Assembly (NCBI GenBank): GCA_963833425.1
Contig: CAWHXP010000008.1
Coordinates: 32,001 to 96,000 of the forward strand
Source of the DNA: an uncultured Methanosarcinaceae archaeon
GTDB taxonomy: Archaea > Halobacteriota > Methanosarcinia > Methanosarcinales > Methanosarcinaceae
Direction of reading: 5' to 3'
Length of the DNA: 64,000 nucleotides
Position numbers and translations under genes: made by a program. Position 1 is the first letter of the stretch, and every line of letters starts with the position of its first letter. Below, in pieces: positions 3,366 through 51,022 of this stretch. The notes below the pieces were generated by a model. It was not told where the DNA came from. It ran no database searches and saw nothing but the letters and a program-made list of their open reading frames with translations.

Positions 3366-4238
3366 ATGGTAAAAAAATTTACAAATCAAACGATCTTCAT
3401 ATTACTAGCTATTGGACTTGTAGTTTTAGGAATTGGGTGTAGTGTAGCGGCTGCTGAGCAGAAAGCTACTTCTTCTCAAACACAAAGTGTTTCTGTGAAA
3501 GGCTCTGATTCTGTTCTGCCTCTTGCACAGGCTGAAGCTGAAGAATATATGAAAGAAAACCCCGGAAAAAGTGTTTCAGTTACTGGAGGTGGATCTGGCG
3601 TTGGAATTGCCGCTCTAATTGACAAAGGATTAGACGTTGCTGATGCATCAAGAGAAATGACAACTGACGAAATCAAAAAGGCTAACTCAAACGGAGTCAG
3701 CCCAGTAAAGCACGTTATCGCTTATGACGGCATTACAGTGATTGTAAATCCAAAGAATCCTGTTACAAAGCTTACCTTTGACCAACTGCGTGGCATCTAT
3801 GGTGGTAATATCAGCAACTGGAAGGAAGTTGGTGGTGAGGACAAATCAATTGTCGTAATTTCTAGAGACAGCAGTTCTGGAACTTATGTAGACTTCAAGA
3901 GTGATATTGGATTTGCTGAATACCGACCTGATGCTCTTACCCAGGCTACTACGGGAGGAATCGTCAGCGAAGTATCTCAGAACCCCAACGCAATCGGGTA
4001 TATCGGTTTTGCATATGTCGATAAAAGCGTAAAGGTCTTAAGCGTTGATAATGGAAAAGGTGCAGTGATGCCAACTGTTGACAGTATTCAAAGTGGAAAA
4101 TATCCACTCTACCGAACGCTCCAGGTCTATACAAATGGGGAACCATCAGGACTCACGAAGGAATTCGTCGACTTTGAGTTGAGTCCGAAAGGACAGGATG
4201 TTGTGAAAAAAGTTGGTTACATCCCTCTCAATAAGTAA
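3366..4238 (+). CDS. pstS: Phosphate-binding protein, PstS family
   Basis: Signal peptide; motifs KGSDSV, GGGSGVGI, DASR, SRDSSSGT, IGYIG, YPLYR. RBS ggag upstream. No pstCAB adjacent. Confidence 0.9.
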   Translation: MVKKFTNQTIFILLAIGLVVLGIGCSVAAAEQKATSSQTQSVSVKGSDSVLPLAQAEAEEYMKENPGKSVSVTGGGSGVGIAALIDKGLDVADASREMTTDEIKKANSNGVSPVKHVIAYDGITVIVNPKNPVTKLTFDQLRGIYGGNISNWKEVGGEDKSIVVISRDSSSGTYVDFKSDIGFAEYRPDALTQATTGGIVSEVSQNPNAIGYIGFAYVDKSVKVLSVDNGKGAVMPTVDSIQSGKYPLYRTLQVYTNGEPSGLTKEFVDFELSPKGQDVVKKVGYIPLNK

Positions 4239-4511
4239 AAACTATAAATTTTAAAAGGAAAATATATTACGGCTTCATAAAGGAAGATCGAGTGATAGGT
4301 GCTCTTCTCAGTCAGCATCTACAGATTGTTATCTTCTACTAATATTATTTTTTTTATTCAGTGTAGTTTATTTCTCTTTAAAATATATCTCTTCTGGATT
4401 TTTTCACTGGCAATTGTTATATATCTTCTAAAGCTAATTTTGATTTACTGACATTAGAATCTCAGATTAGGGTTTTCTTTTTCCTGGTTATAGTCAAAGA
4501 AATTTGAAGCG

Positions 4512-6509
4512 ATGAGCTTCAATCGGGAATGTGACATGGTTGAAAAAAAATCGATTATCTGGGAACTCGGGGAAGAGGTACTCCTCCTTCCAGAATTTGT
4601 GAATTCTGCTCTCACCGCAAATGAAAGAATTAAATATTATTTAACTCTCCTGCAGACTGCCAGAGAAAAGGCTGAACACCCGCAGCTGAAGTTTCCTTCC
4701 ATCATAACCGAGAGGGAAAATGCCGGAGAAGAAAACTCAAAGTTTGATACAATTGTTTCTGAAACTTTTAAAAAAAAGCAAGACACTTATTTTGTTCCTT
4801 TTGCCGAAGAAATTCTCTCCAGAGTATGGGATTGTATGGACGAAATCTGAAACCTCTGCTTGCTAATGGAAGGGGTGAGGGGGGAAGGAATTTGCGGCAA
4901 GGCTTGAAGAGTTAAAGAGTTAGAGAGTCAAAATTCAAGCAGGAATTTCGGCTAGAGAACCAGGAATTCTGAGAGGGGATTTCATAAGGGCTATAACTTC
5001 CGGAGACAGAGATAAAAGCGATAGCCTACACATTCTGGTCATGGACATCCACAGGATCTTAAATAAAATGCAGAAAGAACTTGCTGTTGAAAATCTCTAC
5101 GGGGCAAAAATCTATATGGTGTTAGAAGAGGACAGAGAGCTGATAATTGCTTTCATGGCTGGCGTGAACCGGACTTTTTCCCTGAAATTTGACCATCCAG
5201 GGCTTGGGACAACTGCAACCCGCATTTCCGGCAAGCTTGTGATCCAGAACGATATAGGAGAGACCGAGGCCCATGTGCTCGTGATCCATGTTATGGGGCT
5301 TGAGGTATCCGTTACTTATACCGATGTTCATTTGAGAAGGCTGCTTTTTTTCCAAAGCCTTTTCGAGGGGACAGGTATTTCCTGGGAGGATACAGTCTCC
5401 AGAGTTGCAGGCGAGAAGTTCGAAGACGATCTCTACCACCTTACAGTAGGTCGCTTCAGAGCAAAGAATAGGGAAGAGCTGAAGAACTTTCTAGCTCTTC
5501 TAGGTTCCAGAATCGTTTTTCTCATCGACTGGAATCGTGCCAGGAAAAGCCTACAAAAATTTGTTCCTAATGTAGATTGCATAAAAATACTTCGCTGGGC
5601 AGCCGAAAATGAATGCGGGCACAGGGCTTTCCTGATACTGGGCGGAGAACACCTTATCTTTGGAGCTCTTGAACTTGTTTCTAGGGTACCTCTTCCCTAT
5701 GGTGAGCCACTTTATCAGATTATTGGGAGGGAGAGGGCGACTGAATATTTCCAGTGGGTCCTGCATAGGGCTTCAAAGGGGCTGCTTGGTGGAGATCCCC
5801 TTCTTCTAATCCAGGATGAGATTAGGGCAGAGCTTCTAAGATATTTCCACTCTGCGGAGGAGGACCTTATGGATATATGCTCGGAACATGCATCTTTAAT
5901 TGTGGAAACTGCAAGGGCTGTGAATGACTCTCTTTTCCATATTAGTTATAAAAAAGATAATAAGTTTGTCCTTAGAACTTCAAACAGGGCAAAAATCTGG
6001 GAAAGCCAGGCTGAAGAGTTCGTAAATAGGATCAGAACTATTTCAAAAAGGATCGAAAATGTAGGTTTCTTTGAAAAACTGATTTTCCATATGGATGACG
6101 TTATTGACGCTCTTGAAGATGTTGTCTTTTTTATTAGCCTCATCCCTCCAGTAGATGTATCCCTGGAGATTCTAAAAATCCTGGAGACGATGGCAATGGT
6201 TGTCCTGGGAAGCAGTCGAGAGTTCCTGAAAACCGTTTACGTTTACCAGTACGGCACTCAAATTTTCACCCCTGACGAAATGCAAGCTTTTTTGCGTCTA
6301 TTGCACAGGTTATCAGCTTGGAAAGAACAGGTGATGAGGCCTTCAGCGAGACAAACAGAGTAATCTTCTAAGAGAGCACCAACTTCAAAGAAGCCATGCT
6401 TGCCCGTGAACTTGCGAGAAAAATAGAGGATGCCTCAAATTCTCTAACGCTTGCAGCCTTTACAATCAGTGAAAGGACTTTTGAAGTACACATTAGGGAG
6501 GGATATTGA
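4512..6509 (+). pseudogene. Long phosphate transport regulator-like protein with C-terminal DUF47/PhoU-like helical repeats, disrupted
   Basis: ORFs 4512-4850 and 5041-6363 plus a shifted tail ending TGA at 6507-6509 (LERTGDEAF...ELARKIEDASNSL). DUF47-like motifs WESQAE..., MDDVIDALED. Several stops and frameshifts. Confidence 0.65.
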
Positions 6510-6510
6510 A

Positions 6511-8132
6511 ATGCATGAAAATGTGCTGAGAGCTGAAAAAAAACTGCAGAAGCACGGATACTTGAATTTGGGGTTGGAAAGAGAGAATATGCTCCCAAGG
6601 AATCCTTTGGGAACAAGGGTTCAATTCTAATAGAAATGTCTTCTCTTGGCGTGCCGGTGCCCCCTGGTTTTGCCCTGAATGTCTCTGTATGTGAAGATTA
6701 CTTCAAAAATTCAAGGTATCTTCCTGATGATGTCCCTGGCATCCTCAGGCAGGGCGTTCTTTTCATTGAAAGCGTAACCAGGAAGATTTTTGGGGGCTCT
6801 CCTCCCCTCATGGTTTCTGTCAGATCTAGGGCAGCAGCTTCCATGCCAGGGTCCATGGAGACTCTATTGAACGTAGGGCTTTCGAAAAATGCCGTTAGAT
6901 CCCTCATTGCTAGAACAGGGACCCTCGGCTTTGCCTGGGACTCGTATAGGAGGTTAATTGAAGGGTTTGGAAGAATAGTGTTTTTACAAGATCCTTCCAA
7001 GTATCGGGACCTCCTAAATTCCGCAATCGATGCTGCGGGAGTTCCGGAAGAAAAAGAGCTGGATTACATGGAGTTAAGGAAACTCGCAGAGAATTATGAA
7101 CAGTTCTTCTTTGACGAAAGCGGAAAACTTTTGCCAGAGGATGTATACGAGCAGCTGGATCTTGCTGTCAGGGCAGTTCTTAATTCCTGGATGAGCCCAA
7201 AGGCAACGAAGTTTCGTAAAATCCACAATGTCAAGGGTGTTAGGGGCACGGCAGTTATTATCCAGGCCATGGTTTTTGGAAACATGGACCTGAAATCAGG
7301 TTCAGGGATAGCTTTTACAAGGAACCCCTGGACAGGAGAAAAATTTCCCGTACTCGATTTCAGATTCGAAGCACAGGGAGAGGACTTTGCTTCAGGTTCA
7401 AGAGCTGGGACATTAGGATTTGAACTGAAAACTGCTCTTCCTGTCGTTTACAAGGAGTTTGAAGGGATCGGACAAGAGCTCGAAACCCATTTTAGGGATA
7501 TGCAGGACATTGAGTTCACGGTCGAAGAAGGAAAACTTTACATCCTTCAAAGTCGCGATAGAAAACGTTCTCTAATGGCAGCCTTGATAATTGCAGTTGA
7601 CCTTGTAGATGAAGGACTCATTTCCTCTGACGAGGCTCTACTAAAGCTAGAAGTATAGACCTGAATTCCATTTCAGTGCAGAGAATCCAGACTGATAAAA
7701 CTAGCTTGGCAAAAGGTGACTCTGCGTCAGGTGGGGTTGCTATAGGGAAGATCACGTTTAGCAGCGAGAGGGCAAAGAGCCACACTTCTGGAGAAAATGT
7801 AATTCTTGTTAGGGAAATCCCGTCTCCTGATGATCTTCCAGGAATTCAAGCTTCTACAGGCTTCCTTACGTCCAGCGGAGCCAGAAATGCTCATGCAGCC
7901 GTTATAGCTCGCTAGATGGGGAAAGTATGCATTGTCAACTGCCGGGAGCTCAAACTTGATCCAGGAGGCAGGAAAATGTACCATAGGAGGAAAAGAGTTC
8001 ATGGAAGGAGACTTGATAAGTCTGGATGGGACAAGGGGGGAAGTCTATGAGGGAAAAGTTGAGGTGACGTTCGAAAAACCTGTAGAACTACTTGAAGTGG
8101 TGGATGTATGGAAACGAAAAAAATCTGCTTGA
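6511..8132 (+). pseudogene. Pyruvate phosphate dikinase-like protein (nucleotide-binding and phospho-His domains only), disrupted
   Basis: GNKGS..EM..LGVPVPPGF, VSVRS..AASMPG.METLLNVGL, QAMVFGNM, SGSGIAFTRNP, DMQDIEFT, HAAVIAR, ISLDG..GEVY. Frameshifts near 6540, 7655 and 7975; TAG at 7913-7915. Confidence 0.85.
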
Positions 8133-9360: not shown

Positions 9361-10214
9361 GGTTCCGTTGCAAAAATTCATAATAAGGATTCAATTGAAT
9401 AAAGAGAAAATCAATAGAACGATAATATGCTATCTAATTACTTTAAATGGAAGCATTTTGAAGGAGAAATTATCCTATTGAATGTGAGATGGTACTTAAA
9501 ATATCCATTGAGCTATAGAAATTTAAAGGAAATGATGATAGAAAGAGGAATTCAAGTTGATCACAGTACTATAATGAGATGGTTACATCAATATTCCCCT
9601 GAATTAGAAAAGAAGATAAGAAGACATTTAAGACCAACAAATGATTCGTGGAGAGTTGATGAAACCTATATCAAAGTAAAAGGTAAATGGAAATATTTTT
9701 ATCGAGCAGTTGACTCAGATGGAGACACAATTGATTTCATGTTAAGTTCAAAAGGAAGTCGAAAAGCGGCGAATAGATTCTTTAAGAAAACTTTGAGTTC
9801 TAATCACAATCAAATTCCAAGAGTAATAACCGTTGATAAGAATCCAGCTTATCCCCCTGCTATAGATGAACTGAAAAATGATAAAATACTACCTAAAAAC
9901 GTAGGCATTCGACAAATCAAATATTTGAATAACATTATAGAACAAGATCATAGATCTATAAAGAGAATCGTTAATTCAATGTTAGGATTTCAGTCTTTTC
10001 TATCTGCTAATAAGATTTTAAAAGGAATTGAAGCTATGAATATGATTAAAAAAGACAAGTCAATAATTTAAATTACTCGGTTTTTAATGAAGTCAAATAC
10101 ATTAATCAATTGTTTGGTATAGTTTTATAATGTTGGTATATTTCCCTCGGATCTTTTGACTTTTTTTATCTTCATAGATTTACATGTTTATTCTGAAGTT
10201 TTTGCAACGGAACC
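9361..10214 (+). mobile_element. IS6-family insertion sequence
   Basis: Terminal IRs ggttccgttgcaaa / tttgcaacggaacc. An extra left-end-like IR (ggttctgttgcaaa) lies at 9287. Confidence 0.9.
9427..10071 (+). CDS. IS6-family DDE transposase, C-terminus frameshifted
   Basis: WRVDETYIKV, YRAVD, DKNPAY, NNIIEQDHR motifs. Confidence 0.9.
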   Translation: MLSNYFKWKHFEGEIILLNVRWYLKYPLSYRNLKEMMIERGIQVDHSTIMRWLHQYSPELEKKIRRHLRPTNDSWRVDETYIKVKGKWKYFYRAVDSDGDTIDFMLSSKGSRKAANRFFKKTLSSNHNQIPRVITVDKNPAYPPAIDELKNDKILPKNVGIRQIKYLNNIIEQDHRSIKRIVNSMLGFQSFLSANKILKGIEAMNMIKKDKSII

Positions 10215-12140: not shown

Positions 12141-12781
12141 TTAATCGTTTAGTTTCGCATCATGAAGTGTTTTCACTTTAGAAAGCTGTTCTAATGTTAA
12201 ATAGTGAGCTCCTCTAAACTTAGTTCCTTTAAGGCTAGCTACTTCAAAATTAGCTCCTTCAAGGTTTACCCATCTAAGGTTAGCCCATTCAAGGTTAACT
12301 TTCATAAGATCAGCCCATTCAAGATCAGCTTCGGTAAAATTAGTCCATACCATGTGAGATTTTAAAAGATTAGCCACTTTGAGTATAGCCCAATTGAGCT
12401 CAGCTCCTACAAGGTTAACTTCTCTAAGGTTAGCTCCTTCAAGATTAGCCCCTCTAAGATTGGCTCCTTCAAGTTTAGCTCCATCAAGATTAGCTTTTCT
12501 AAGATTAGCTTCTCTAAGGTCGATCCCAATCAAATTAGCTTCTCTAAGATCTGCTCCTTCAAGGTTAGTTTTTCTAAGGTTCGTCCATTTAAGGTTAGCC
12601 CACTAAAGGTTACACCTCCAAGGTTGGCTTCCCTAAGATTAACCCCTTTAAGATAGGACTCTTTTAGGTTAGCTTCTATAAAGTCAGCACCTATAAGATT
12701 AGCTCTATTAAAGTTACTCTCGTTAAGGTTAACTCTTTTAAGGTTAGCCCGGTTTATTTTAACTTTTAGAATTTCCTGCAT
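12141..12781 (-). pseudogene. Pentapeptide-repeat protein, frameshifted
   Basis: A(N/D)LxG/E repeats split across two frames (12530-12781 and 12141-12533). Confidence 0.8.
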
Positions 12782-14019: not shown

Positions 14020-14873
14020 TTAACCTCCCGAAAGTCCGATTTCCGAGGTTGGATTATATACTCTATTGTTTGAATTATTCCATTCTGTACTATTCACTAT
14101 AGTTTGTCCTTCGAGATTCTGGCAGAAGTTGATGAAGTCTTTAACAGTCCCAGTAGGTGTTCCTTTAGTTAGAGATATCAGATTTCTTTTAAGTGGATAA
14201 CTTCCATTTTGAACGGTCTGTTGTGTAGGGGTGATGTTGTTCACTGATAGTACTTTAACTTCATTAGTCAAATATGCATGAGAGATGTATCCAATGGCAT
14301 CTGAAATTGTAACCACTGATTGTAAAAGTCCGTAGTTAAATGTATCCACTTGAACTTGATTGCCGTATGATCTAATATTTATAAATTTTTCAAAATCAGC
14401 TCTAGTACCAGATCCAGCTTCTCTAATCTTGGGTACAAAAGTACCTTTACTTCCACCCACTTTGCTCCAGTTAGTGATGCTACCTGTATAAATACCCGCC
14501 ACTTGATCCAGGGAAAGATCATTCACGGAATTTGATGGGTCCAAAATTAAAGAACACCATCTTTTCCAATAACATACTGTGACAAACTCTGCGCTTCCGA
14601 ATTAGTTAAATCCCGCGATGAAGTACCAATATCTCCACTTCCTGAACGTGCATCGTTTATACCAACTCCAGAATCGCCACCACTTACTGATATTTTTACA
14701 CTAGTATGGTTACTATGTAAGCAGTGGCTAATGCCTGTGCTACGGGGGCGCTACGGAAGTCGAACCAGCAATAGTTATAGTACTGCAACCAGTTAATACT
14801 GAGTAACCAACAATCTAACGATTACTACCAAAACAATTAAACCTATTCTTAAATAATTGTTTTTGAAGTTCAT
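14020..14873 (-). pseudogene. Second PstS-family substrate-binding protein, frameshifted
   Basis: Upstream frames give IIAGSTSVA, VSGGDSGVGI, DIGTSSRD, IGKDG; the ORF gives ITNWS.VGG, REAGSGTR, IGYIS, YPLKR. ATG overlaps the MFS stop (ATGA). Confidence 0.8.
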
Positions 14874-16495
14874 TCTTCCATCACCATCTTTAGGGGTTTT
14901 TCAGAGATTTTTCCGGGTTTACCCTCTTCGTCATATTCCTTAAGACCTGTAAAATATTTTGATAAATATTTCCCTGCGTATTTTTCTAAGTCTAAGGCGG
15001 AGAACAAAAGTAACCCACTCAATATAGCTCCAAATAGAAAGATTCTTTGAAACCCTAAAAGGAAGCTTGCTGCTTGGCTCGCGGATAATGCAACTCTACA
15101 ACTAAGTGAACTTTGCGCTACAGCTGTAGCAATTATAAGTCCGGCAAAAGCATTATCTAAAACTGATCCTAAGTTTTTGGTTAGAGTCATTGTCGCGGAA
15201 ATTTGTGTTTTGAAGGTTAATGGAATTACTGAAAGCAACATTTTATTATTAGGAGATTGATAAAAACCATACCCCAATCCTAGAATAATCAACGATGGTA
15301 TAATGTACATCCAATTAGCTATGGTTTGGAAACTATGTATCATAATGGTGCTTACAATACAAGCCAAGGCTGCTGTAATAGCCAGTGGTTTCACACCTGT
15401 TCTATCTGCAAGCCCGCCGGCTATGATAGATATGAACGTGGAGGAGAACCATACGACACTAATAAGGATATCTGTTACGTTAACTGGGGTACCGATAACC
15501 TTCTGGAAGTAAAATGGTAAGGTGAAGAATGCCATATATAATATTATGTAATTTACGAGTAGTCCGGTTATATATGCAGCGAAAGTGAGGCTATGGAATA
15601 CAGTAAATCTGAATAAAGGTTCTTCATGCTTTGATTCCACATAGAAAACAAAATTCCAAAAATTGTCGCTAATGGTAGTAATGTAATGTCATAAGTGTTA
15701 AAGCCGAATTTTTGTGCTCATATTAAAACGTAAGTAAGTGTAAATAGCGCTACTGCTTGTAAAATTGCTCCTTTATAGTCTATAATTTTGGCGAATATAG
15801 AAGCGTCACTTGCATCAGGGAGTTGATTTTTATATTGTTGTTTTTTATCTAACAATTCAAAGTCGTTATCTGCGTCGGGTTTTTGAGTTGTAAATAAATA
15901 TACTATCATACTCGCTAATCCAAATGGGATTACTGCTAGGAAAACATATTACCAGCCGATGTATGCTGCAATATAACCACCAGCCAGTGGTCCGATTGCG
16001 TAACCTCCAGCTAATGCTAGAAGTAAGAATCCCAAAGCAAATCCTAGTCTTTCATGGGGGAATGTTCGATCCATTATAGCGTAATAAACCGATTCCATGC
16101 AACCTGCAGCAAACCCCTGAATAGCTCTATATAGAACGAGTGATTCTGCTGATGTTGAGAAGTAACAAAGCAACGAAGCGGTAATCCATATCAACGTTCC
16201 TAACATGAAAAATTTCTTACGATTCCATAAACCACCAATTCTACCTAAAAATATTACAGAAATAGTGAGGGTTAACAAATAAATGTTAGATATCCAGGTG
16301 CCTGTCATTACATCAGTATGGTAATAATTCTGTTATCGTGGGTAAGGTAACATTAACCAAACCAATGTAAAAGTTGAACATGAAATTAACTAGACATATG
16401 GTTAGTAAAACAAACCATAACTGCCTTGGATTATTCAGTGAGATCAGCGGGTTTATATTAAGATTCATATTTTTAAATTTCACCATATTTTTCAT
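14870..16495 (-). pseudogene. MFS transporter (DHA2/EmrB-like), fragmented
   Basis: Four consecutive hydrophobic ORF pieces with VNVTLPTI, W..NIYLL, GRIGGLWNRK, RAIQG, GPLAGGYI, FYQSPNN motifs. Confidence 0.8.
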
Positions 16496-16964: not shown

Positions 16965-17182
16965 TTAAATGTGCATTCAACGGGACAACAAGTTTTTGAC
17001 AGAAAAAAATACACTAGCTATTTCACAGTATTTCTTGTAGCAATTTCAATGACAACTACTGTAGTAAGCGACACAGATGAAATGCAGACACCGCCTAAAC
17101 GCACTTCAAGGCGAACACTAGGTAGGTACCACACCGATTTGCACTGCTAAAAGTGGAACGATTAATGAATGTAAGGTGGAGT

Positions 17183-17851
17183 ATGTTCCAAAATCGTAAA
17201 GATGCAGGAGAAAAACTTGCCTTGGCTCTTGAAAAGTTCAAGGCTGAAAACCCTATCATTCTTGCTATTCCACGAGGGGGAGTGGAGGTGGGATTACAAG
17301 TTGCAATGAAACTAAACATGGATTTTTCCCTCATCTTTGTAAGAAAACTGCCTTTTCCGGATAACCCTGAAGCCTGGTTTGGAGCAATAGTTGAGAATGG
17401 AAGCACTTTCATCTTTGAAAATGCTTATTACTGGCTCGCAGGGGAAAATATTGAGAAAATCAGACAGCAGCAGATTGTAGAGATCGATAGGCGTATAAAA
17501 GCTCTCAGAGGAGGAAATTCCTTGCCTGACATGAAAGGAAGAACCGTGATACTCATCGATGATAGCATTGTGATGGGTTCTACAGTGAGAGCAGCCATCG
17601 AACTCTGCAAAAATAGGGAAGCCAAAAAAATTGTGGTCGCAGTACCCGTAGCTGGAAGAGAGGCAGCGGAAAAGATCAGCAGTAAAGTCAATGAACTTGT
17701 AGTGCTTAAAATTTCTAGATACTTCAGGGCTGTCGCGTAGGCTTATGCGAAATGGTACGATGTCACGGATGAGGAAGTTCTAGATCTGCTAAGAAAAAAC
17801 ATACAAGAAAAAAAGCTGGAAAATTATAATTTGGATGTACTTGAAGACTGA
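17183..17851 (+). CDS. Phosphoribosyltransferase-family protein with in-frame TAG at 17738-17740 (pseudogene or amber readthrough)
   Basis: F.NR.DAG..LA, LAIPRGG, ILIDD..VMGST, VVAVPV. The frame continues FRAVA*AYAKWYDVTDEEVLDLL to TGA at 17849-17851. Confidence 0.75.
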
Positions 17852-20762: not shown

Positions 20763-21613
20763 GGTTTCGTTGCAAAAAATCCTTTCTAATGATACAATAG
20801 AATAAAAAGAGAACTAAAGATAGTAATATGCTATCCAATTCCTTTAAATGGAAGCATTATGAAGGAGAAATTATCCTATTGAATGTAGGATGGTATTTAA
20901 AATACCCATTGAGCTATAGGAATTTAAAGGAAATGATGATAGAAAGAGGAATTCAAGTTGCTCACAGTACTATAATGAGATGTGTGCATCAATATTCTCC
21001 TGAAATGGAAAAGAAGATAAGAAGACATTTAAGACCAACAAACTATTCGTGGAGAGTTGATGAAACCTATATCAAAGTAAAAGGTAAATGGAAATATTTT
21101 TACCGAGCAGTTGATTCAAATGGAGATACAATTGATTTCATGTTAAGGCAAAACGAAATCGAAAAGTAGCGAAGAGATTCTTTAATAAAGCTTTGAGTTC
21201 TAACCATAATCAGATTCCAAGAGTAATAGCCGTTGATAAGAATCCAGCTTATCTCCCTGCTATAGATGAACTGAAAACTGAAAAGAAGTTGTCTAAAAGG
21301 ATTGAAATTAGACAAGTAAAATATTTAAATAACATTATAGAACAAGATCATAGGTCTATAAAGCGAATCTTTAATCCAATGTTAGGATTTCAGTCTTTTC
21401 GATCTGCTAATAAGACTTTAAAAGGAATTGAAGCTATGGATATGATTAAAAAAGACAAGTCAATAATTTAAATACTCTGTTCTTAAAGAAGTCAAATGCA
21501 TTAATCAATTGTTTGATATCGTTTTAAAATATTGGTACATTTTCCTCGAATATTTTGATTTTTGTTCATTACTTATAGATTTACATATTTTTTTGAATTT
21601 TTTGCAACGGACC
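20763..21613 (+). mobile_element. IS6-family element with frameshifted transposase (ORF pieces 20828-21169 and 21193-21471)
   Basis: IRs ggtttcgttgcaaa / tttgcaacggacc; closely similar to 9361-10214. Confidence 0.9.
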
Positions 21614-49216: not shown

Positions 49217-51022
49217 TTGAGCAAACAAATATTTGATAGCAATAGAAAGGCACTGGCTATTTTGTTGGCTGTGTCATTTTTACTAACATTGGCCTCTTTT
49301 CCGGTAAGTTCCCATCCAGTAGAGGCGTCAACTTTATATGGTACTTATATATGGAAACCTACGCTTAACACCCCCGCTTCTTCATACATTCCTAGTCAGA
49401 TTCCTAATCCCAACATTCCTAGTCAAACTCCTAATACCGACATTTCTAGTCAAACTCCTAATACCGACATTTCTAGTCAAACCCCTAATACCGACATTTC
49501 TACTCAAACCCCTAATACCGAGGTTTCTAGTCAAACTCCTAATACCGACATTCCTACTCAAACCCCTAATACCGAGGTTTCTAGTCAAACTCCTAATACC
49601 GAGGTTTCTAGTCAAACTCCTAATACTGACATTCCTAGTCAAACCCCTAATACCGAGGTTTCTAGTCAAACTCCTAATACCGAGGTTTCTAGTCAAACTC
49701 CTAATACTGACATTCCTAGTCAAACCCCTAATACCGAGGTTTCTAGTCAAACTCCTAATACCAACATTCCTACTCAAACCCCTAATACCGAGGTTTCTAG
49801 TCAAACTCCTAATCCCAACATTTCTAGTCAAACTCCTAATTCCAACGTTTCTTGTCAAATTCTTAATCCCAAGCTTTCCAGTCAAATTCCTAATCCCAAC
49901 ATCCCTAGTCAAACTCCTAATCCCAACGTTCCTAGTCAAATTCTTAATCCCAACATCCCTAGTCAAACTCCTAATCCCAACGTTCCTAGTCAAATTCTTA
50001 ATCCCAACGTTCCTAGTCAAATTCTTAATCCCAACATCCCTAGTCAAACTCCTAATCCCAACGTTCCTAGTCAAATTCTTAATCCCAACATCCCTAGTCA
50101 AACTCCTAATCCCAACTTTCCTAGTCAAATTCTTAATCCCAACGTTCCTAGTCAAATTCTTAATCCCAATGTTCCTAGTCAAATTCCTAATTTCAACATC
50201 CCTAGTCAGACTCCTAACCCTATAACTCCTCGTAAGAATTCTGGTCAAACTCCTCATCTCAGCATCTCTCGTCAAAATTTTAGTCCAATGTCAGATACAA
50301 TGACTGAGTTAACTTCTTCAGCTAATAAATATACATTGGGCCAGACAGTAACGCTTACTGCTATCATTGGTACGCCTTCAAAAGGAGTCAAAAATCCTTC
50401 AGGTACAGTTACTTTTATCGATGGGACCCTGGCCATAGGAACTGAAACTGTAAATTCGGGGCAGGCGATTTTGGCTACTTCAGTGCTTTCAGTTGGCTCA
50501 CATTCGATCACAGTCCAATATAGTGGTGATAATAACTTCAAACCCAGTACATCATCTATTTTCACACTAGTGGTTCTAGATAAGCTTGGTTCAGATCAAC
50601 TACCTGGATCCCCAGAGAATCCTATGGTGGATACAAAGATTGAGTTAACTTCTGCAGCTACTGAGTATGTATCTGGCCAGCCAATAACATTTACCGCTAA
50701 AGTTGATACGATATCACAAGGAACAGATAAGCCTTCAGGTACAGTTACTTTCATAGACGAGAAAACGCAAATAGGAGCTGAAGCTATAAATTCGGGACAG
50801 ACAATTTTGACTACTTCAGAGCTTTCAGTTGGCTCACATTCGATCACAGCTCAATATAGCGGTAATAATAACTTCAAACCTAGCACATCAACTGTTTTTA
50901 CACTAACAGTTAAAAAAGATTCACTATTTCATCACCCATTATTTCCAATGGGTTGCGGTATTATTGCTACTATTATTGTTACAGTGGTTGGTGGCTTCAT
51001 ACGGACAAAATTACGTTTATAA
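49217..51022 (+). CDS. Cell-surface protein: signal peptide, S/T/P/Q/N-rich repeat stalk, two Ig-like domains, C-terminal TM anchor
   Basis: Two copies of GQ..T.TA......PSGTVTF.D....IG.......GQ.......LSVGSHSIT.QYSG.NNFKPS; hydrophobic C-terminus. Confidence 0.85.
   Translation: MSKQIFDSNRKALAILLAVSFLLTLASFPVSSHPVEASTLYGTYIWKPTLNTPASSYIPSQIPNPNIPSQTPNTDISSQTPNTDISSQTPNTDISTQTPNTEVSSQTPNTDIPTQTPNTEVSSQTPNTEVSSQTPNTDIPSQTPNTEVSSQTPNTEVSSQTPNTDIPSQTPNTEVSSQTPNTNIPTQTPNTEVSSQTPNPNISSQTPNSNVSCQILNPKLSSQIPNPNIPSQTPNPNVPSQILNPNIPSQTPNPNVPSQILNPNVPSQILNPNIPSQTPNPNVPSQILNPNIPSQTPNPNFPSQILNPNVPSQILNPNVPSQIPNFNIPSQTPNPITPRKNSGQTPHLSISRQNFSPMSDTMTELTSSANKYTLGQTVTLTAIIGTPSKGVKNPSGTVTFIDGTLAIGTETVNSGQAILATSVLSVGSHSITVQYSGDNNFKPSTSSIFTLVVLDKLGSDQLPGSPENPMVDTKIELTSAATEYVSGQPITFTAKVDTISQGTDKPSGTVTFIDEKTQIGAEAINSGQTILTTSELSVGSHSITAQYSGNNNFKPSTSTVFTLTVKKDSLFHHPLFPMGCGIIATIIVTVVGGFIRTKLRL
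49388..50224 (+). repeat. Coding tandem repeat, ~31 x 27 bp (9 aa)
   Basis: Unit similar to attcctagtcaaactcctaataccgac; no unique spacers. Confidence 0.95.

Follow-up and report, generated by a model that had tools for sequence, protein, structure and literature searches.

Pyruvate phosphate dikinase (PPDK; TIGR01828; PDB entries 1KBL and 1DIK) consists of an ATP-grasp domain, a swivel domain with a catalytic His residue, and a phosphoenolpyruvate (PEP)/pyruvate barrel. A 64,000-nucleotide (nt) stretch of DNA from an uncultured Methanosarcinaceae archaeon (GenBank assembly GCA_963833425.1, contig CAWHXP010000008.1, positions 32,001 to 96,000; C8:32001-96000 in our numbering), hereafter the window, contains the remains of two adjacent genes, A and B, the second of which encodes the ATP-grasp and swivel domains of a PPDK with their catalytic residues. 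In contrast to PPDK, B is barrel-less, comes with an obligate partner gene, and forms a separate phylogenetic branch. Genes A and B are a conserved two-gene unit of archaea and bacteria, and the half-PPDK is not a local truncation.

A barrel-less PPDK acting as a His kinase is a known kind of protein. According to the main text of the paper that describes it (PMC13400623), VadK (Rv1127c) of Mycobacterium tuberculosis is a barrel-less PPDK that autophosphorylates on His422 when supplied with ATP and Mg in a Tris/NaCl buffer to which inorganic phosphate (Pi) was not added. The product of its operon partner gene, Rv1126c, raises the solubility of VadK and was removed by a 2 M NaCl wash, and VadK pulled down PrpC and PrpD. 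Archaea and PhoU are never mentioned in that main text. As with B, the gene for VadK has an adjacent partner, and the partners of VadK-type kinases carry the motifs of a helical bundle in A (see below). However, the partner of VadK-type kinases is a protein of ~204 amino acids (aa) with a MarR-like start, whereas A has 650 aa and a PhoU tail, and VadK is found in the context of methylcitrate genes, whereas the context of the pair is phosphate genes. No methylcitrate-cycle genes were seen among 88 proteins scanned, which were mostly recurrent neighbors of the pair, and no search was aimed at them.

Rifampin phosphotransferase likewise joins the nucleotide and His domains of the PPDK/PEP synthase type with an unrelated acceptor domain (PMC4844700). 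Its single chain ends with the His domain and acts on a known small molecule, in contrast to the pair, where the candidate acceptor is a protein of its own or is fused at the N terminus. Finally, the tail of A shares its fold and acidic E/D-xxx-D pairs with the DUF47/PhoU_div and PhoU proteins (PF01865; 3L39, 2IIU, 1T72). Those proteins stand alone and have ~210 aa, whereas the domain in A forms the C-terminal part of a 650-aa protein whose gene is tied to that of a kinase. PPDK-derived His kinases have been shown recently in one bacterial group. The pair represents a second, independent origin with another partner and another context, spans several archaeal and bacterial phyla, and supplies candidate acceptor residues that are relevant also to VadK-type phosphate transfer.

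Distribution and relationships of the gene pair

A sequence-only reading of the window had noticed three same-strand genes, pstS and the two considered here, with the last two 1 nt apart, and this arrangement is correct: on the + strand, gene A runs from the ATG at 4536 to a TGA ending at 6509, and gene B runs from the ATG at 6511 to 8132. Both are pseudogenes in the window (657 aa and ~540 aa, respectively, in intact relatives). The same reading took them for the relic of a system intact elsewhere, as they proved to be. At least 4566 of the 7996 candidates scored are relatives of gene A, with 1038 representatives at an E value of 1e-10, and at least 555 of the 597 pattern matches listed from GTDB belong to the same family. 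The nearest relatives are Methanosarcina or Methanosarcinaceae records. Gene A is patchily distributed, with 4 carriers among the 24 other genomes of the genus, 1 among 16 others of the order, and 5 among 150 drawn from the phylum.

The loci with the 80 best matches to a Methanosarcina gene A query, which are not a random sample, come from methanogens, Methanoperedens, Nitrososphaerota, Thermoplasmatota, Pseudomonadota, Actinomycetota, and others. In 78 of them, A is followed by a same-strand gene B; of the two exceptions, one lies at a contig end and the other (L053) is genuine. Where the spacing was scored, 71 of 75 loci have no more than 30 nt between the genes, and the genes overlap by 4 nt in 25. 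Complete gene B sequences stop within 45 residues of the end of the model in 73 of 74 cases, and the PEP/pyruvate barrel (PF02896) was found in none of the 78 gene B loci. Thus, the homologs are consistently barrel-less and not full-length PPDKs, and the pairing itself is conserved. No third gene consistently accompanies the pair. Five of the loci with the pair (L037, L046, L056, L064, and L049) come from four “Candidatus Accumulibacter” records and one “Candidatus Methylophosphatis” record. Both are polyphosphate-storing organisms. Cultured carriers of an intact pair include Methanoculleus frigidifontis (L016), Parvibaculum sedimenti (L070), and Plasticicumulans acidivorans (L058).

A reverse scan, in which gene B was used to search metagenomes, yielded 80 loci. 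Of these, 62 have a barrel but not A, 13 have A but lack a barrel, and 5 have neither. Two of the last five group with B and have no upstream DNA, and three group with full-length PPDKs, so that A is upstream in 13 of the 15 B-group loci and next to none of the 62 barrel-bearing PPDKs. The two genes can also be fused. Among the long matches to gene B, 24 of the top 27 are barrel-less proteins of ~1200 aa with the PPDK_N and His domains, 17 of which have DUF47 on record, and two proteins (P0151 and P0168) match both the A and the B profiles. P0271 and P0272, long barrel-bearing matches to the B profile, are ordinary PPDKs of full length in which the swivel His domain is repeated in tandem, two or three times in all. 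Long C-terminal tails of B do not represent a barrel: the tail at L064 reads through Ns, and the 984-aa frame at L011:4322-7276 continues into a flavin amine-oxidase-like domain, probably through a lost stop.

The gene B profile aligns with residues 14-530 of the 874-residue PPDK of Clostridium symbiosum (numbering via the 9PZL alignment), and B scores below the cut-off of TIGR01828 (535 bits versus 843). All 44 intact B proteins in the comparison have equivalents of K22, R92, E323, Q335, R337, T453, and H455, the first five of which also occur in the window frame; they presumably have the same roles as in PPDK, including the Pi site, and a literature search for those roles came back empty. 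The swivel domain (PF00391) with its His is likewise found in 44 of 44, and the His codon of the window copy is at 7892-7894. By analogy with PPDK and VadK, B likely autophosphorylates this swivel His from ATP.

In an unrooted LG+G4 tree of 72 thinned rows (24 paired B, 4 fusions, 34 barrel-bearing proteins, and 10 other short forms), a branch with 100/100 support has the 28 B rows together on one side. VadK-type short kinases, represented by proxies (top PRK05878 scorers and partner-linked kinases, VadK itself not being included), nest among the actinobacterial full-length PPDKs, apart from B, and the barrel was therefore lost independently. A placement of two VadK-type rows between B and the full-length PPDKs dissolved when nine more rows were added, the barrel-less rows formed one group in 0 of 200 bootstrap trees, and common ancestry of all barrel-less forms was rejected. 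The NF004531/PRK05878 model proved unsuitable as a discriminator because full-length PPDKs also exceed its cut-off.

The broken state of both window genes would suit an explanation by which the truncation and the pairing are merely local decay of an ordinary PPDK. This idea, to which we give next to no chance, is refuted by the short form of 73 of 74 complete relatives, by their own branch, and by the full-length PPDK of 883 aa that the source genome encodes separately on contig C15. Our literature search, with most subscription papers and bioRxiv supplements outside it, found no paper joining DUF47 with PPDK or describing the pair, and nothing on polyphosphate, PhoU, and dikinases in methanogenic archaea.

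Gene A and the partners of VadK-type kinases

Gene A encodes three domains, as seen in the AlphaFold model of an intact representative (P0004; predicted local distance difference test score [pLDDT], 93.8). Its tail (residues 434-657; 5836-6509 in the window) has been correctly recognized as DUF47/PhoU in the sequence-only reading: residues 428-652 of the model have that fold (3L39, Z score of 24.9, root mean square deviation [rmsd] of 2.9, 205 residues aligned; 1T72, Z score of 21.8; Foldseek match at E of 2.5e-4). The acidic pairs E489/D493, D520/D524, and E596/D600 are found in about 87-95% of gene A rows, and we take the E/D-xxx-D motif to be a PhoU signature. The Pfam DUF47 model matched neither the window frame nor P0004 and gave E values from 1e-3 to 1e-10 in relatives. 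The first 430 residues have no Pfam, NCBIfam, or PDB sequence match, and the ESM Atlas returned unnamed clusters for A (0.79) and for the bundle of the partner family described below (0.91), with no structure. The ~400 N-terminal residues that the earlier reading left unassigned can now be resolved into a candidate His acceptor bundle and a middle domain with no informative fold match.

The first domain (residues 1-182; 4536-5082) forms a four-helix bundle over residues 12-180 of the model. Its match to the histidine phosphotransfer (HPt) domain P1 of CheA (1TQG; Z score of 8.1, rmsd of 3.2, 104 residues aligned) is within the range of generic bundles and comes without residue-level mapping. 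The characteristic residues are N29/K33/T37/Q40, R122, and D162-S-x-H165-x4-D170-L-H172, the two His residues being ~95% conserved; the D162/H165/H172 motif is at 5020-5052 of the window. The middle domain (residues 183-433; 5083-5835), alpha/beta plus helical, contains the near-invariant residues H220, Q237-N238-D239, H246, D263, H265, R268, D331, N333, R336, K337, and H362. Residues 183-436 folded alone with a pLDDT of 92.2 had no informative match among 48,161 chains, the best being the C-terminal domain of T4 MotA (Z score of 8.7, rmsd of 3.2, 104 residues aligned, 6% identity), which is no proof of a new fold.

The bundle provides a link to VadK-type kinases. Beside a top PRK05878 scorer (L131) lies a 204-aa gene with a MarR-like start, a member of a family of ~200-aa proteins with 1253 matches among 4756 candidates (Nocardia, Mycobacterium, and Streptomyces) that we infer, from position and taxa, to be the Rv1126c family. 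Its invariant residues N90, K94, R151, D173, S174, H176, E181, L182, and H183 have counterparts in N29, K33, R122, D162, S163, H165, D170, L171, and H172 of gene A, with equal spacing within helices. A two-motif pattern, composed after both families had been viewed, is found in 73 of 124 A rows and in 69 of 71 rows of the partner family but in none of the 2284 frames of the source genome; the second motif, in 2.0 million residues of locus frames, matches solely A and the ~200-aa partner. A profile comparison based on a more diverse alignment gave a score of 27.5 (E of 8e-4), above the maxima of 21.1 and 18.3 from 45+45 shuffles, whereas the PhoU part of A, used as a control, gave an E value of 0.51. 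We take the A bundle and the ~200-aa partner to be probable homologs, although the statistics are weak. The related bundle has a helix-turn-helix-like N terminus elsewhere and is not accompanied by the middle domain.

The ~200-aa partner is present in 17 of 151 actinobacterial genomes. Widened partner loci have an adjacent barrel-less kinase in 9 of 17 cases, and a single open frame at L242:1743-3917 combines a barrel-less kinase with a C-terminal partner where the barrel would sit. In 151 genomes of the phylum of the window, the partner family gave only three weak N-terminal matches. A full-length PPDK in one genome (G041) groups with the partner-linked kinases, and the bundle may thus act on full PPDKs too.

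Because of the two-motif signature that it has in common with the VadK-type partner, and because of the fusions, the bundle of A is a candidate phosphoryl acceptor. Alternatively, A could bind or control B as a chaperone, an inhibitor, or a Pi- or metal-sensing switch without being phosphorylated, with B targeting other proteins, as proposed for VadK and the methylcitrate enzymes; we consider this clearly unlikely. PhoU proteins work by binding, and all 44 intact B proteins have a regulatory Thr at the second position before the His, both of which would suit such a role. So would the behavior of Rv1126c and the pulldown of PrpC and PrpD, as given in the main text of PMC13400623. However, no further gene travels with the pair, and both bundle His residues are strongly conserved.

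Phosphate context and possible functions

The flanks of the pair loci were scanned with 14 query proteins for pst, pho, ppk, ppx, CHAD, and CYTH genes. Phosphate or polyphosphate (polyP) genes were detected at 19 of the 80 loci with the pair (836 kb of flanking DNA) versus 1 of 62 metagenome loci of full-length PPDK (427 kb), an approximately tenfold enrichment in counts that include non-independent kin and over a control that differs in taxa. PPK1, PPK2, Ppx, CHAD, or CYTH genes were found at 12 of 80 pair loci versus 0 of 62 controls, and pst/pho genes were found at 10 of 80, Pit not being among the genes searched. The sequence-only reading, which asked whether homologs co-occur with pst, pit, and ppk genes, is supported by this enrichment but not by 61 of 80 loci, which have none of the tested genes in the flanks covered. 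Its inclusion of pstS in the unit did not hold up: PstS is encoded at 6 of 80 loci and lies directly upstream of A in three close kin only.

The 61 loci without such genes, and the archaeal origin of 14 of the 19 positive ones, could mean that the pair is unrelated to phosphate homeostasis, with the PhoU-like domain serving a structural or docking role and the phosphate neighbors reflecting a few lineages. We regard this as highly unlikely: the positive loci come from several families and four phyla and include varied genes (pst, phoBR, ppk1, ppk2, ppx, and CHAD), and the acidic PhoU pairs are kept in about 90% of A proteins.

Tentatively, and at somewhat short of an even chance, we favor a mechanism in which B phosphorylates its own His and passes the phosphoryl group to the His bundle of A, and the PhoU tail acts on phosphate uptake or polyP turnover. 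Once the swivel His has been phosphorylated from ATP, as would be expected from PPDK and VadK, phospho-B would dock on the bundle, which would replace the lost barrel and accept the phosphoryl group on H165 or H172, as the shared motifs and the fusions suggest. The PhoU domain, judging from its fold, might then serve as the output on Pst, PhoR, or polyP enzymes, and the middle domain would likely be a phosphate-binding or phosphatase-type reset site. In this way, methanogens and wastewater bacteria that accumulate polyP may use the pair to couple phosphate and polyP control to energy state. The more specific proposal of the earlier reading, that B reports the Pi level by using Pi as a substrate, is unproven, and VadK is phosphorylated without added Pi (main text of PMC13400623).

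Several observations weigh against phosphoryl transfer to the bundle with a phosphate-related output. The resemblance to the CheA domain is of a generic kind, the two-motif pattern was devised after the fact, 11 divergent partner sequences fail it in its strict form, and the bundle reached an HH probability of 25% at best. With the narrower alignment, the profile comparison was not significant (score of 18.3 versus a shuffle maximum of 18.7; HH probability of 1.4%). No PPDK-type gene is found within about 5 kb of the partner at 8 of 17 loci (L243-L250), and the interactors of VadK reported in the main text of PMC13400623 are methylcitrate enzymes and not the operon partner. The middle domain is the most conserved part of A, which suits a catalytic site better than a passive relay. 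On the side of the output, besides the 61 loci mentioned above, PPK1 is present in 23 of the 24 other genomes of the genus whether or not they are among the four with A, which indicates that the pair is not required for polyP synthesis. In the phylum draw, PPK1 was found in 4 of 5 A-bearing genomes, all four from one family, versus 38 of 150 overall; the fifth has no PPK1 match. We therefore see the pair as an accessory in lineages that handle phosphate.

The conservation of the middle domain can also be explained by a split dikinase, in which this domain provides a second active site that works with an inorganic acceptor or donor (Pi, pyrophosphate [PPi], or a polyP end), as in the reaction polyP + AMP + PPi -> ATP + Pi, with the PhoU domain as a metal- or phosphate-binding regulator. 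We hold this to be doubtful but worth serious attention. It would account for the dozen or so near-invariant His, Asp, Asn, Arg, and Lys residues between positions 220 and 362, for the excess of polyP genes in the flanks of the pair, for the five loci from “Ca. Accumulibacter” or “Ca. Methylophosphatis,” and for the A-B fusions, and there is a parallel in rifampin phosphotransferase, whose ATP-grasp and swivel domains serve a new substrate domain (PMC4844700). However, structure comparison gave the middle domain no match to a known enzyme from which its chemistry could be read, it is missing where the related bundle occurs elsewhere, and the pair is absent from most polyP-making relatives. A split enzyme and transfer to the bundle can be combined. 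In a broader form that we judge rather unlikely, the His bundle would be a general phosphoacceptor of the PPDK swivel domain, recruited at least twice after barrel loss, and the pair would be a polyP-linked dikinase with the A middle domain and PhoU-type control. If true, this would mean a relay of phosphoryl groups between ATP/PPi and polyP or Pi through the middle domain, which would be a new fold, in methanogens and polyP-accumulating bacteria.

The window copy and its source genome

The window copy is a decayed relic, dead and useful as a pointer only. Its decay was mapped codon by codon against two intact loci (L001 and L003). Gene A has three frameshifts and two premature stops (-1 at ~4847, +2 at ~4879, TAG at 4921, -1 at ~6288, and TAA at 6369), and gene B has three frameshifts and one premature stop (-1 at ~6543, -1 at ~7650, TAG at 7913, and +1 at ~7973), three of the breaks being nonsense substitutions. 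Thus, both genes are broken, as the sequence-only reading had recognized, and pstS is intact. That reading also had gene B end cleanly just after the HAAVIAR motif. The absence of the barrel and the length of ~540 aa stand, but the TAG at 7913, just past the motif, is a decay mutation: the homologous frame continues for ~70 residues to the TGA at 8132, which is the end point of intact relatives and by which the swivel domain is complete. No PEP/pyruvate barrel is present downstream of the gene B frame in the window. In addition, Asn replaces the otherwise invariant Thr two residues ahead of the catalytic His. Methanosarcina can read TAG as pyrrolysine, but the window copy would be broken even if the TAG codons at 4921 and 7913 were read through, as the frameshifts and the TAA remain. 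Gene A of another genome of the genus (L087, G019) has three in-frame TAG codons. Another locus, L005, is also split, so decay of the pair may be frequent in this group.

Assembly errors alone are unlikely to account for the breaks, because a contig from run X1, 93% identical to the window, has none of the six frameshifts and a 195-nt contig from run X4, perhaps the source sample, is identical letter for letter over the insertion at 7973. The ratios of nonsynonymous to synonymous substitution rates (dN/dS) versus L001 and L003 are 0.15-0.16 for A and 0.21-0.23 for B, near the values of 0.13 and 0.17 between the intact loci, and the decay is therefore recent. The ratio is raised for pstS as well (0.24-0.26 versus 0.12 between the intact loci). 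No sequencing run contained more than 0.14 of the words, too little for any claim about habitat. Short contigs of relatives spanning pstS, A, and B occurred in an RNA run but are no proof of transcription.

The source genome (4.07 Mb in 21 contigs, 80% complete) contains part of a second copy. Contig C20 starts with the last ~170 codons of another gene B (L081:1-525), 92% identical to L001 (89% for the window copy), followed by CYTH and CHAD genes, as in L001 and L003. The window has kept the upstream neighbors of the L001/L003 locus and C20 the downstream ones. This copy shows a run of about 16 G's and, near the end, a +1, and the contig start truncates it on the upstream side, so that a working pair may or may not survive in the source organism. 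In addition to the full-length PPDK on C15, the genome encodes ppk1, ppx, and a ppk2-like gene.

The pstS gene (3366-4238, + strand) is an open 290-aa frame coding for a phosphate-binding protein (Pfam PBP_like_2, E of 3.7e-43) that lies 297 nt upstream of gene A and is a lineage-specific neighbor; paralogs are found on C4, C6, C15, and C20. Downstream, the similarity to the DNA of intact relatives stops at an IS240-type transposase gene outside the unit (9427-10071, + strand). The end of this element matches dozens of sites in the genome, and another IS240-type element is at 20828-21169. Further apparent gene fragments at 12141-12781, 14020-14544, 14870-16308, and 17153-17740 look by eye like a pentapeptide repeat, PstS-like, major facilitator superfamily-like, and phosphoribosyltransferase-like proteins. 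Farther along the window, a 601-aa frame (49217-51022, - strand) contains a long stretch of QTPN/QILN repeats of ~12 residues each and, C-terminally, two repeats that look Ig-like.

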